Source: Octopus vulgaris (lineage: Eukaryota). From it: a stretch of 64,000 bases of DNA. The position numbers and the translations under genes are program-made. The notes under the pieces were generated by a model. It saw nothing but the letters and a program-made list of their open reading frames with translations, had not been told where the DNA came from and did no database searches. Positions 11,901 to 63,156 of this stretch are shown here, one piece after another. The stretch is taken from positions 21,514,001 through 21,578,000 of the forward strand of contig OX597819.1 of the NCBI GenBank assembly GCA_951406725.2, in the 5' to 3' direction. The stretch's first letter is position 1; each line of letters opens with the position of its first letter.

Positions 11901-11994
11901 AAAGTATTATTAGAGACAAAACCACTATTTTGCAAAACAAACAAGGAAAAACTTAATCAATACATAAAATTTTAATAAATAGTCAAAAAAACCG

Positions 11995-12037
11995 CCACTA
12001 CAATCGTTTCTTGTCTTGATCGACAATCTTCAGGTGG
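11995..12037 (-). ncRNA. Type I minimal hammerhead ribozyme (left arm of palindrome)
   Basis: Minus strand: CCAC-CUGAAGA-UUGUC-gaucaa-GACAA-GAAAC-gauu-GUA-GUGG. Confidence 0.85.
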
Positions 12038-12084
12038 ACTTCCAATAAGTCAGTTTCAAATTTTGAAACTGACTTATTGGAAGT

Positions 12085-12127
12085 CCACCTGAAGATTGTC
12101 GATCAAGACAAGAAACGATTGTAGTGG
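12085..12127 (+). ncRNA. Type I minimal hammerhead ribozyme (right arm of palindrome)
   Basis: Stem I ccac/gtgg; core CUGAAGA 12089-12095; stem II ttgtc/gacaa; GAAAC 12112-12116; near-palindromic stem III acgattgt; GUA 12121-12123. Confidence 0.88.
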
Positions 12128-12410
12128 CGGTTTTTTTGACTATTTATTAAAATTTTATGTATTGATTAAGTTTTTCCTTGTTTGTTTTGCAAAATAGTGG
12201 TTTTGTCTCTAATAATATTTTATAATATTTTACTATAAAATTGGATTTAATCCTAAATCTGATTTTTTTCCCTGTAAATTTGGATTTATTCCCTAATATT
12301 TATTATTATATATATATATATATATATATATATATATATATATATATATATATATATATATATATATATATATATATATATATATATATATATATTTATT
12401 ATATAGAAGG

Positions 12411-12461
12411 AGCTTCTACAGGACTAGTACTGTTTCATTCAAGAGAAATCTTCAGGAAGCT
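12411..12461 (-). ncRNA. Type I hammerhead ribozyme (different family)
   Basis: Minus strand: AGCUUC-CUGAAGA-uUUC-ucuu-GAAu-GAAAC-AG-uacuaguc-CU-GUA-GAAGCU; 6-bp stem I; U-U mismatch at the base of stem II. Confidence 0.8.
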
Positions 12462-12604
12462 ATTTAACAAGAATTGTATTAGCATTTATACATTTAGGCA
12501 GGTTTAAAGGAGTGGTGGTGGGGGACTTTTTGGGGGGTAGGCATAGCGCAAAATATCATACTTGGGGGAGTGGTCAAGGAGTCAGTGGTAAGTTAGATGA
12601 AAGA

Positions 12605-12782
12605 ATAGATAAATAAAAAAATAAAAAAATAAAAAAATATAAAAAATAAAAAATAAAAAATAAAAAATAAAAAATAAAAAAATAAAATAAAATAAAAAAA
12701 TAAAATAAAAAAATAAAAAATATATATATAAAAAAATATATATATAAAATATATATATACAAAAATATATATATAAAAAAAA
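12605..12782. repeat. A-rich (AAAAAAT)n-type simple repeat
   Basis: Direct reading. Confidence 0.9.
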
Positions 12783-13282
12783 GGGGGGATAGAGTTATAG
12801 GTAAATAAGGAGATTCTCACTTATACCTATACACACATGTATACGTATCTACACACACATACATACATACACATATATATACACACACATATACATATAT
12901 ACATATATATACATACATATACATACCTACACATACACACATACATACATACAAATATACATATACATATATATATATACAATCCAATACAGGCCCATTC
13001 CCTAATTTTAATTTTATTATCTTCATTTATTACTTTTGTTATCTTTGATCGCTAGGGCTAAGAATCCTGGCAATGGCTGCAGTCCATTTGTCTGTCTACT
13101 AGAAGGCAAGTACTCATTCCCGCACGCACACTCATTAGCACGTACATTCACCCATTCGTACACTCATACACATACACGTACGCACGCGTTATATTCATAC
13201 ATACAAACATCTACATACGTTCACGTATATACACATACGTACTCGTACCTACAGATTCATGTCTACACTTTAGGAGGCTAGA

Positions 13283-59440: not shown

Positions 59441-59640
59441 TATTTGTTCGTCATTTGACTGCGGCCATGCTGGACACCGCCGTTAGTTGAACAAATGGAC
59501 CCCTGGACCTATACTTCATAAGCTTAGTACATATTCTATCGATCTCTTTTGCTAAGCCAATAAGTTACTGGAACGTAACTCATCAACATTGGTTGTCAGG
59601 TGATGGTGAGGGACAACACAGACACACACACACGTGTCTG
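59441..59640 (-). mobile_element. SINE family A, 3' half
   Basis: gtcatttgactgcggccatgctggacaccgcc is the reverse complement of the family A tail. Confidence 0.8.
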
Positions 59641-59914
59641 TGTGTAATGCTAATATCGAACAGTGAGAATGAGTTCTTAACACTGCATTGGTAGTTAAAT
59701 ATTTCCTATTTGCTGGTTAACAAGGCAACAAATGGTTTCATGACAAGCATAACACATCGAAGTTTTGGTAGTCTGCAATCCAATTTGGAGAGGAGTGCAT
59801 GTATATATGTGTGTGTGCGTGTATGTATGTATGTGTGTATGTATGTATATACACAAACATTTATACTAGTAGTAGTGCACTTTATAGTTTTAGTGAAGGA
59901 TTGGAACTGTAGAC

Positions 59915-60375
59915 TTCGAATTAGTTTCCACTTTTATAGTTTTGTGAAGCTAAATTTCTCAAGATTGGTATCTAAGCAGTGTGTGAAATATCCCTGCGCC
60001 TCAATAATCACAGATATAAACCTGAACTTGTAATCTGGATAGAGTAACTTCAGATTTCTCATTAATTCAGCATAGGTGTTCTCTTTTTCATTGATCTTCA
60101 GTTTTATGTTTACATCCACTGGGCAGCTAATTTCCACAATTCTGCACAGCTTCTCTTCTCTCTCCCAAATCATTATATCAGGCCTGTTATGCTTACATTT
60201 TATTGAAGACATCACTGGCACATTCTAACACTATTCCTTTTTATTAAGAGTGGCTATGGCATCTACCTTATTGTGGGTTCTTATTTCTTTGTCCTCGGAG
60301 TTATCCTTCCGACGGATTTCATTGTAGAGTGGCCTAGGTAAAATATCATGTATCATCGGTAGATAGTACGGGTTT
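59915..60375 (-). mobile_element. R4/Dong-type RLE LINE fragment (second copy)
   Basis: YYLPMIHD...KCKHNRPDIMIWEREEKLCRIVEISCPVDVNIKLKINEKENTYAEL...YPDYKF. Confidence 0.85.
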
Positions 60376-60477
60376 AATACCTGAAGAATTGTAAGGAGGC
60401 TAGAAGGAACAACCGTTACCAGTATTTCATTCAGCTCTTTCGCTTCCCTTTCCCTTTCATCATTTTAAAGTCGATAA

Positions 60478-61995
60478 TATACATATATACATATATATAT
60501 ATATATATATATATATATATATATATATATATATATATATATACATACATATATATCTACCTATAAATATATACATATACATACATATATCTGTATATAT
60601 ATATATATATACATACATATATATCTATCTATAAATATATACATATACATACATATATCTGTATATATATATACATACATAGATCTATATATATAAATAT
60701 ATATATATCTATATATATATATATATATACATAGATCTATATATATAAAATATATATATATATATATATATATATATATACATAGATCTATATATATAAA
60801 ATATATATATACATAGATCTATATATATAAAATATATATATATATATATATATATATATATATATACATAGATCTATATATATAAAATATATATATATAT
60901 ATATATATATATATATATATATATATATATATATATATATATATATATACATATATATATGTATATATATATACATATATCTGTATATATATATACATAT
61001 ATATATCTATATATATAAACATAGATACATCTATATATATACATATATCTATATTTATACATATACATATATCTATATATATATATACATACATACATTT
61101 ATAACTATATATATATACACATACATACATATATAACTATCTATCTATCTATATATATATATATATATACATATACATACATACATATATAACTATCTAT
61201 CTATATATATATATACATATATACATACATACATAACTATCTATATATTTACACATACATACATATATAACTATCTATATATACATATACATACATATAT
61301 AACTATCTATATATGTATACATATACCTACATATATAACTATCTATATATACATACATACATAACTGTCTATATATATATACATATACATGCATAACTGT
61401 CTATATATATATACATATACATACATAACTGTCTATATATATATATACATATACATACATACATAACTATCTATATATATACATATACATACATACATAA
61501 CTATCTATATATACATATATTACTATCTATATATATATACATTTAAATACATACATATATAACTATCTATATATACATACATATATAAACTATCTATATA
61601 CATATACATACATATATAACTATCTATTTATATATACATGCATACATACATACATATATAACTATCTATTTATATATACATGCATACATACATACATATA
61701 TAACTATCTATATATATATACATACATATATATATAACTATCTATATATATACATACATACATATATAACTATCTATATATATATACATACATACATATA
61801 TAACTATCTATATATATATATACATACATATATATATATAACGATCTATCTATCTATATATATATATACATACATATATATATAACGATCTATATATATA
61901 TATATATATATATATATATACATACATACATACATATATATATATATATATACATACACACACACACTCATATATATGTATGTATACATATATGA
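60478..61995. repeat. TA-rich minisatellite with variable units (acatagatctatat, then ataactatct)
   Basis: Recurrent anchors separated by variable (TA)n/(TACA)n. Confidence 0.9.
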
Positions 61996-62582
61996 GTGTG
62001 TGCATTATACATAACAAAAATGTCTGCTAATTTTGTATGTTTAGGTACATTTATTGTGAGTTCCTTGTGTTTGTGCGTTTATCTAAATGTTTGTCTTTGT
62101 ATTCAATATATCTATATGTCTGTCTGACAGTGTATTGATCTACTGTCTACGGTAAATAGCAATAATTTTATTTCTATATCTATTTAATTCATGTCTACTC
62201 ATATGAGAATATCACTCTAAATTCTTTACCCAGTCTCAAGAGTTGTTTAACTACAACATACCAACGAATATTACATACAAAAACACCCAGCAAAAACTTA
62301 GGAGCACACGCACATATGCGCACAAACACACACGTATATATGCATACTAATCTACCTATTTATATAGTTATCTCTTTAGCTATCTATACATATCTGTAGA
62401 TATATATTCACATTACATTTGACTTAGATATATGTCTATCTATCTATCCATCTGTGTCTGTCTATCTGTTTACTCTATCTCTCTCTCCCTATTATATATA
62501 TATATATATATATATATATATATATATATATATATATATATGTATGTATAAATATACATCTATCAACATATATATATATATA

Positions 62583-62975
62583 TCTTTATATATAAAAGTG
62601 AAGTTCTGTGTCTGTCTCCTACGATTTAGATTCCTAACTACTCCCACATTTTGCGATGCAGTTTAACCAAAACCGGGTATCTTATAGTCGTGATTCATAT
62701 CGAGCCCTTCTGGGTATTAGCGCGCGTCTACGATGAGTCTACTATTTAAAAAAAAATTTACCATAATTTTTTTCCATTTTAATGCATTTTTTCGCTATTA
62801 TATAAGGGAAGTAACTCTCTAAAAATGTCTACGATGTGTCAACGATTTAAAAAAAAATTACCATCATTTTTTTCCATTTTTAATGCATTTTTTTGCTTTT
62901 TTTGCTATAACTCTCTAAAAATGCTTATATAGTTATTTCCCTTACAAACCCGAGCAACGCCGGACGATACTGCTG
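62583..62975 (+). mobile_element. Non-autonomous Helitron, copy 3 (3' CTAG mutated)
   Basis: Close match to the reverse complement of 37906-38304, including the internal duplication. Confidence 0.85.
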
Positions 62976-63075
62976 TATATATATATATAAAGATAGATAT
63001 ATACGCATGTATATATATACATATACGTACGTACGTACATGTATATATATATATATATTTGTAAATGTAATATGT

Positions 63076-63156
63076 GATAATTACTCGGTAGCCCTCATAA
63101 AACTCCGAGTTTCGGATGACGGGATGGAAATCCACGCCGCCATCTCTTCAGTTATC
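63076..63156 (-). ncRNA. Type I hammerhead ribozyme with long stems II and III
   Basis: GAUAA-CUGAAGA-GAUGGCGG...CCGUCAUC-c-GAAAC-UCGG-AG...CU-a-CCGA-GUA-a-UUAUC; one extra base before GAAA and one after GUA; insert flanked by (TA)n. Confidence 0.75.

Follow-up and report, generated by a model that had tools for sequence, protein, structure and literature searches.

Hammerhead ribozymes at the ends of Penelope-like elements (PLEs), inverted pairs of copies, one-sided tails and (TA)n targeting have all been published (PMC4209133, PMC8557442), and an octopus Hydra family, Hydra-1_Obim, is listed with this arrangement (Craig et al. 2021, PMC8557442). PLE ends that carry hammerheads and lie in TA repeats are known already, octopus included. 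The described motifs occur as dispersed single hammerheads from truncated PLEs and as opposite-strand pairs 100-700 bp apart, with a short palindromic stem III and an extra base after A9; all of these traits recur here. Their role in vivo is treated as an open question (PMC8557442, PMC7761336). Type I hammerheads are also found in non-LTR retrozymes, short non-coding units of PLE origin (PMC7761336; bioRxiv 10.64898/2026.07.22.740005).

We analysed a window of 64,000 nucleotides of Octopus vulgaris DNA (contig OX597819.1, positions 21,514,001 to 21,578,000), in which a first-pass annotation had placed at least eight type I hammerheads in about six families. All eight are at or near the places given, but the one at 47806 is decayed, so seven fit. 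The family count holds, with seven elements in six families (A-F). The motifs at 11995(-) and 12085(+), taken as separate, are two arms of one inverted insertion, and the one put at 63076(-) really spans 63097-63155. The motifs are very probably, for the most part, the 3' pseudo-LTR (pLTR) hammerheads of several PLE families, present as 5'-truncated copies with their 3' ends against (TA)n. What stands out is an altered catalytic core, predicted to be a poor cutter, that the commonest family retains. The window contains the following features.

11737..11901, no strand: (TA)n tract flanking element A on the side without a tail
11902..12060, minus: family A inverted arm, no tail; hammerhead 11995-12037, canonical core, predicted cleavage after 11999
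12062..12296, plus: family A main arm with a tail of about 70 nt; hammerhead 12085-12127, predicted cleavage after 12123
12296..12397, no strand: (TA)n tract common to A (tail end) and D (3' end)
12394..14806, minus: family D, 5'-truncated copy of an autonomous PLE, Hydra-type by its motifs; hammerhead 12411-12461, canonical core
27002..27452, minus: degraded GIY-YIG endonuclease relic, nearer Hydra-type proteins
28092..28255, minus: body of family C, with a canonical-core hammerhead (28155-28196) that has a zero-loop palindromic stem III
28856..28914, minus: tRNA-like head of family C, in which A and B boxes were recognised by eye
28941..28985, plus: inverted fragment of a family C 3' end
29813..29985, minus: family B, 5'-truncated end of a putatively Neptune-type PLE; hammerhead 29900-29935, U at core position 6
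30418..30551, plus: family E truncated end; hammerhead 30440-30485, U4C core
47787..47910, plus: old family C copy; hammerhead 47806-47848, decayed
63060..63182, minus: family F, 5'-truncated PLE end, Hydra-type by its motifs, between two TA tracts; hammerhead 63097-63155, canonical core
12033(-), 12089(+), 12455(-), 28193(-), 29931(-), 30443(+), 47809(+), 63151(-): core C3 positions of the eight motifs

The proposed PLE link is borne out for B, D and F, which lie downstream of PLE frames elsewhere in the genome. The window copy of D (2.4 kb, with a microsatellite-rich 3' UTR and a 5' junction that has about 130 nt of TA) is 97% identical to locus L162, where it follows a GIY-YIG frame. Full copies of D (L343, L346) encode 713 aa with RWR, DKT, CxCX5C, CxxC and CxH motifs. 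A reading of D as an endonuclease-only deletion form was rejected: its frequent 225-codon frame results from a homopolymer frameshift, and the sequence runs on into the reverse transcriptase. In family F, a 708-aa frame is flanked by two pLTRs with TA at the end (L203), and the window-type hammerhead lies downstream of a 74%-identical frame (L352). The full family F protein was not recognised by Pfam. F-type frames are 99-100% identical in all 122 scored. Direct pLTRs, with a hammerhead in each of the two, are present in full-length copies L203, L343 and L346.

From a motif scan, in which GxKF was absent, and the absence of CCHH as judged by eye, D and F are putatively assigned to the Hydra clade. 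As far as the available part of PMC8557442 describes them, Hydra-clade PLEs share with D and F a C-terminal GIY-YIG, the DKT, CxCX5C, CxxC and CxH motifs, a hammerhead in the pLTR, insertion into (TA)n, truncated copies in inverted orientation and a one-sided tail. According to the same source, the clade has RWK where D has RWR and is generally <3 kb, whereas D reaches about 5.4 kb because of its 3.07-kb microsatellite UTR (F, about 2.5 kb). Tails are 30-40 nt there but about 65-70 nt here, at one end only, and the motif listed for Hydra-1_Obim differs from the D and F hammerheads. The listed Hydra cores are all canonical, in contrast to a very young autonomous F subfamily with a U4C core; our literature search found no report of this core in a young autonomous family.

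Family B leads to a putative Neptune-type PLE, the probable parent of B and of other families here (L353, L355), which would share the microsatellite bias and the cysteine linker before a CCHH-type GIY-YIG that are described for the Neptune clade (PMC8557442). A 5'-extended family B pattern has 147 exact matches in the genome, and about half of the 20 fetched match further upstream. At L390 and L379 an endonuclease C-terminus stands 796 nt above the B core; this endonuclease end was recovered upstream, the reverse transcriptase was not. The linked peptide is 86% identical to the GIY-YIG of L195 (Pfam E 2.7e-4, just under the cut-off), where a CxxC and GIY-YIG region was read. Neither the B peptide nor a Neptune endonuclease region had a match in word-indexed homologue searches, and an atlas search gave no usable match; a HMMER search returned 117 relatives. 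The PLE GIY-YIG relic announced for the window itself is present but weak (E 2e-4), and Pfam, run on 150 of the 355 window frames, gave no GIY-YIG, just LINE-type reverse transcriptase and endonuclease. The relic is not the source of the eight motifs. It has its own C/T-rich UTR downstream.

Families A and E are likely of PLE origin, judging from their architecture; no parent reading frame was found for E, nor for A in the genome. Family A copies comprise 31 inverted pairs and 8 solo copies. The pairs take 13 different centre spacings, which overturns a reading of A as a fixed palindromic MITE-like unit, and 29 of the 31 have exactly one tail. All known A 5' ends lie within about 12 nt of one site, a clustering that resembles that expected of a short element. 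In family E, the window copy ends at TA 30551-30581 and 5' extents are variable. Inverted partners also occur in E, F and C pairs. In the PLE families 3' junctions are fixed, at TA. Published PLE biology suggests how such copies could arise. The GIY-YIG endonuclease of the element likely nicks TA tracts, where the reverse transcriptase would begin target-primed copying at the 3' end of the RNA. Copying that stops early would leave many short ends, and every insertion would produce a new inverted arm, with one and the same RNA or cDNA as its source. Self-cleavage would be slow and proceed in dimers through the short palindromic stem III. Stem III has palindromic or near-palindromic loops of 0-4 nt in A, B, C, E and F and is a 4-bp stem in D; in single-strand folding of monomers, the hammerhead fold is unfavoured for most (z 0.12 to -3.24).

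A, C and the short majority of B could also be self-propagating non-autonomous elements, transcribed from a promoter in the pLTR (in C, the tRNA-like head) and mobilised in trans, a possibility that we place somewhat short of an even chance. Of 33 B copies, 32 end 46-65 nt above stem I, A 5' ends cluster, PLE promoters are described inside the pLTR (PMC2377424), and at 3 of 4 random loci the C head is joined to a body, with inversion at the 5' end of the head itself. However, long forms of B, at least 1 kb in length, reach the endonuclease upstream, a finding that also overturned a view of B as a strictly bounded SINE; truncation alone predicts surviving short 3' ends, and no RNA start was observed.

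Family C has features of its own. Compared by eye with the consensus, its A and B boxes are spaced as in a tRNA; ARAGORN found a tRNA at 0 of 14 loci and Rfam gave no tRNA match. No parent reading frame was found. The family shows PLE-style inversion and a tail, and is not TA-linked: the TA next to the motif at 28155, read earlier as part of the pattern, adjoins 0 of 5 random family C copies. The window body does have TA beside it at 28080-28111, atypical of the family, and (AAT)n and another inserted repeat stand between its head and body. Family C is likely a tRNA-promoter SINE borrowing a PLE end and a non-TA-targeting partner. The schistosome SINEs SM-alpha and Sj-alpha are of tRNA origin. 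They likewise combine a promoter and a hammerhead; family C differs by its inversion and tail, its internal (AAT)n spacer and the lack of any tandem arrays seen, as far as the available account of those SINEs goes (PMC6765202).

The earlier claim that seven motifs lie 15-180 bp upstream of (TA)n in their own orientation agrees with our measurement, in which 7 of 8 are within about 185 nt against a window background of 17.5%. From the cleavage site to the next (TA)5 the distances are 97 nt (12033), 183 (12089), about 20 (12455), about 45 (28193), 91 (29931), 68 (30443), 204 (47809) and 42 (63151); the B copy ends at TA 29768-29812. The polarity extends to a random 1 Mb, where 45 of 55 family motifs have (TA)5 within 200 nt downstream (background 11%). 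It arises because the motif sits 20-180 nt inside the 3' junction of the element. No empty insertion site was seen, and therefore we infer TA as a pre-existing target. Flanking TA might instead be partly made by the element, through repeat addition or slippage by a telomerase-like reverse transcriptase, and not just chosen, which we consider unlikely. TA of at least 10 nt is present at 148 of 158 young junctions (D, 30/30; F, 36/39) with medians of 26-40 nt, whereas uniform insertion into length-weighted tracts predicts 57% of junctions and 11 nt. In family B, TA is longer on the 3' side than on the 5' side (25 vs 6 nt, n=33, p 0.008). Yet the family A totals are matched just as well by a strong preference for longer tracts, rising with about the cube of length, B 5' ends are imperfectly trimmed, and tracts can grow after insertion. 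We found no published report of flanking TA longer than random insertion predicts.

The first-pass annotation had inferred many short ribozyme-bearing elements. Read as retrozymes, these would be non-coding ribozyme units amplified via circular RNA, with a PLE enzyme inserting them. The units measure 130-250 nt with one type I hammerhead each, and retrozymes are reported to be pLTR-derived (bioRxiv 10.64898/2026.07.22.740005), but this origin is very improbable here. Retrozymes are tandem (PMC7761336), whereas the window elements stand alone or in inverted pairs, and most of them continue into autonomous elements. Head-to-tail arrays are absent: close pairs (<600 nt) in 1 Mb number 1 same-strand against 6 opposite-strand, and in the sole same-strand pair the units are TA-separated and the second is truncated. 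The copies show no permutation at the cleavage site, and B, D and F run upstream into long PLE 3' UTRs and reading frames, so the retrozyme reading is already refuted for these three families.

That the eight motifs are chance occurrences beside abundant TA arrays (1413 tracts in 1 Mb) is refuted, with practically no probability left. Under strict folding rules 5 of the 8 are recovered, whereas 100 local dinucleotide shuffles yield 0.07 on average (maximum 1); in 1 Mb the strict scan gives 25 against 0-4. Every motif is, moreover, a member of a multi-copy family. Perfect-core matches in the window number 3, against 0 in 100 shuffles. The motif at 28193 has a stem I of 3 bp, and that at 47809 has lost the 15.2-16.2 pair and one stem II pair; genomic copies of the family D motif pass when the scan is relaxed. 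An Rfam scan of the window gave no hammerhead among the 150 of 419 matches listed, which were mostly microsatellite-driven miRNA matches. The 55 family motifs in 1 Mb correspond to about 1 per 18 kb, about half the density of 1 per 8 kb first suggested. The population is nevertheless large, as had been anticipated: about 150,000 family motifs when extrapolated from 1 Mb, or roughly 65,000 by the strict scan, against published counts of 2,000-9,000 per genome obtained by different methods.

The two single core variants noted earlier are real, and are fixed family states rather than decay. Matched copies have a canonical core in 68/68 for A, 31/31 for D, 29/31 for F and 30/35 for C; U4C is found in 21/33 for E. 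The B lineage is the commonest, with on the order of 60,000 copies, and 30 of 30 copies have U at core position 6, in place of the otherwise invariant A6. N7 is any of the four bases, position 17 varies but is never G, and the remaining core positions are all fixed. Such a core is predicted to cut poorly. A split-core hammerhead in B through a downstream CUGA-like motif was discarded, no stem I partner being seen by eye. In the B superfamily, 95% of 480 cells are paired, in line with the stem covariation looked for, and both sides of the outer stem I pair (C-G/G-C) changed in 15 cells against 0 of 500 shuffles; this covariation is essentially one event between two lineages. Similar core variants may, reportedly, be described by Lunse et al. 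2017. Our searches of the open literature found no report of family C or of a U6 hammerhead lineage. In the available part of the published PLE hammerhead survey, U6 and U4C family cores are absent. U6 here spans several subfamilies, in which the putatively Neptune-type lineage differs from the Neptune clade as defined in PMC8557442.

The core is perfect in only 1 of 25 strict matches in 1 Mb, and our data suggest that tens of thousands of short repeats in such genomes are PLE ends, which searches for canonical cores would miss. We tentatively propose, as a rather improbable scheme, that the U6 hammerhead is a naturally active A6U form, or that its fold serves in reverse transcriptase recognition or dimerisation and cutting is dispensable. 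If this is true, PLEs, with endonucleases that favour or extend long TA tracts and a family that has 24 TA tracts within its own UTR, would shape the microsatellite landscape of the octopus in a self-reinforcing way. Very young autonomous families in this genome carry canonical, U4C and U6 cores, so that cleavage rate can be set against transposition success.

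All eight hammerhead motifs listed in the first-pass annotation are present in the window. A strict scan for core and stems gave 5 window matches, compared with a mean of 0.07 in 100 local dinucleotide shuffles. The motif at 12411 was accepted by a relaxed scan, that at 28155 has a stem I of 3 bp and that at 47806 is decayed. Because 11995 and 12085 mark the two arms of a single inverted insertion, the window contains 7 elements. These belong to six families, matching the estimate of about six. The motifs are real, far over chance and accounted for by the known biology of Penelope-like elements (PLEs). 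Their families are new members of an established type, with core variants open to testing.

Hammerhead-bearing elements of the window
11902-12296, family A
12411, family D
28155, family C
29900, family B
30440, family E
47806, family C
63097, family F

Hammerheads in PLE terminal repeats (pLTRs), inverted truncated copies, tails and a (TA)n preference are already described in PMC8557442, whose supplement lists an octopus Hydra family and its hammerhead. Thousands of minimal hammerheads, dispersed and on opposite strands, were attributed to truncated PLEs (PMC4209133). The available text of PMC13282606 puts the number of recently active PLE families in Octopus vulgaris at 31, with no mention of ribozymes.

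A first look at the 2.8-Gb assembly (227 contigs) gave candidates, which are not copy numbers, for families A (1426), B (713), C (2419), D (991), E (2042) and F (1837). We also sampled a random Mb as 100 stretches of 10 kb on 27 large contigs, placed by approximate lengths. The family-seed search found 55 motifs there (B superfamily 34, F 10, C 5, D 3, E 1, A 0, other family 2). The proposed density of about one per 8 kb falls to about one per 18 kb, but a large population is upheld, with some 150,000 motifs by extrapolation. The strict scan of the random Mb gave 25 matches versus 0-4 in 10 shuffles, with cores CCGANGA (11), CTGTNGA (8), canonical (1) and other (5).

The suggested polarity towards TA is borne out, with (TA)5 at most 200 nt downstream of 45 of the 55 random-Mb motifs, as compared with 11% of random positions. 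Upstream, (TA)5 is found for 28/55 (random positions, 11%). Family C has no (TA)5 neighbours in this sample, either downstream (0/5) or upstream (0/5). Hammerhead polarity reflects geometry, since the motif lies within the element, 20-180 nt from its 3' junction.

TA tracts of at least 10 nt flank 148 of 158 young junctions, versus 57% expected for uniform insertion with length-weighted tracts. Median lengths are 26-40 nt, against 11 nt expected. Tracts adjoining motifs in the random Mb have a median of 31 nt (n=43), the others 16 nt (n=1370). Selection of long tracts by the elements and repeat addition both fit these long flanks. The retrozyme-like reading is contradicted by close pairs (<600 nt) in the random Mb, 1 same-strand versus 6 opposite-strand, and by element copies that do not start at the predicted cleavage site.

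The elements display PLE ends, fixed 3' TA junctions, inversion and a one-sided tail. By analogy with published PLE biology, an endonuclease would nick (TA)n, target-primed reverse transcription would then begin and copying would terminate early; the hammerheads would cleave slowly, as dimers. Minimal PLE hammerheads are reported to have low activity in vitro (PMC4209133).

Families D and F encode proteins with the Hydra-clade motifs given in section 11 of PMC8557442. One protein from this genome resembles, as judged by eye, the published Hydra-1_Obim. Full copies of family D contain a 713-aa frame flanked by two direct repeats, each with a hammerhead. Region 12394-14806 of the window is 97% identical to another genomic locus (L162), where it lies 3' of a GIY-YIG frame. 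The D UTR (3068 nt) contains 24 TA tracts of at least 10 nt. As the low-complexity region 12600-14720 is mostly D 3' UTR, each D copy spreads microsatellites, its own target included. Region 11737-14940 is a nested stack, in which the TA tract adjoining the 3' end of element D contains element A. Its three TA tracts sum to about 400 nt; the longest single random-Mb tract is 148 nt. Similar stacks occur at three other loci (L088, L343 and L195). A full F element was found elsewhere in the genome (L203); its 708-aa frame lies between two pLTRs, and the element ends in TA. Its subfamily is very young, with 99-100% identity in 122/122 scored frames and a U4C core in 39/42 copies. U4C reduces activity in vitro, yet is tolerated in a viroid (PMC3088659). 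The window-type F is older, and in L352 follows a frame that is 74% identical.

Copies of family B stop 46-65 nt above stem I at their 5' side in 32/33 cases. This first suggested a bounded SINE, an impression overturned by longer upstream forms. The longest-5'-end pattern has 147 exact genome matches. About half of 20 fetched matches share further upstream sequence, two of them over more than 700 nt. One long copy extends as far as the C-terminus of an endonuclease, which lies 796 nt above the hammerhead core and is 86% identical to the Neptune-type GIY-YIG of L195. The B core was tallied from copies retrieved through the 3' flank only, using 30/42 rows; the window copy, 4 rows of a locus that had been picked for its similarity to B and 7 truncated or unrelated rows were dropped. 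Position 6 is U in 30/30 copies, N7 is A (11), T (8), G (6) or C (5), and position 17 is A (25) or T (5). Ignoring CpG decay, variants in at least 3 copies occur at 0/13 other core positions versus 25/73 flank columns (Fisher p 0.016; 0.0008 with stems included), p values that are optimistic because the copies are related and the flanks contain T-runs. Covariation between the U6 and A6 lineages is seen at one outer pair of stem I. Changes at position 6 reduce hammerhead activity (PMC3088659). Both lineages have a conserved short GAGC-containing motif 20-30 nt beyond the predicted cleavage site (window 29873-29885, minus strand), whose sequence complements the 3' strand of stem II. It could form an off-switch fold.

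Of 39 distinct family A loci, half of them selected by a query across the centre, 31 have an inverted pair and 8 a solo copy. The pairs have 13 centre spacings, and 29/31 carry exactly one tail. Arms differ by 0.45 substitutions within a locus versus 1.10 between loci, and in 2 loci both arms carry locus-private variants. These data fit an inverted arm that arises at each insertion, from fold-back or from two RNAs of one source. Family A (window 12062-12290) was matched in sequencing runs of five organisms and is therefore common to more than one species.

The 5' extents of family E vary, reaching about 300 nt, and the family has tails and inverted pairs; its parent element was not found in the loci looked at. 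In family C, an (AAT)n spacer separates a head bearing A- and B-box-like motifs from the hammerhead body. Of 4 random loci having the head, 3 have it joined to a body; neither ARAGORN nor Rfam called the head a tRNA. At 26100-26225 (minus strand), a possible decayed hammerhead, with an altered core and a long insert in stem II, ends a C/T-rich UTR 3' of the GIY-YIG relic. Further PLE families were seen at two other loci (L353:745-3087 and L355:582-2303), with Pfam matches to RT and GIY-YIG, a 781-codon frame in many copies, CCAAT and CRE promoter-like repeats within the 3' UTR and termini at TA. The L355 hammerhead is U4C; the strict scan found no hammerhead match in L353.

Two window fragments (10774-11202 and 59937-60224, both minus strand) carry an HNRPDI-type motif and gave no match in Pfam. 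We take them to resemble restriction-like endonucleases of R2/HERO-type retrotransposons. A LINE-type relic lies at 41930-44588 (minus strand; RVT_1, E 3.5e-29, and an AP endonuclease fragment). A common SINE-like repeat occurs in tandem, with a period of 184-188 nt, at 35573-36017 and 49598-49982.
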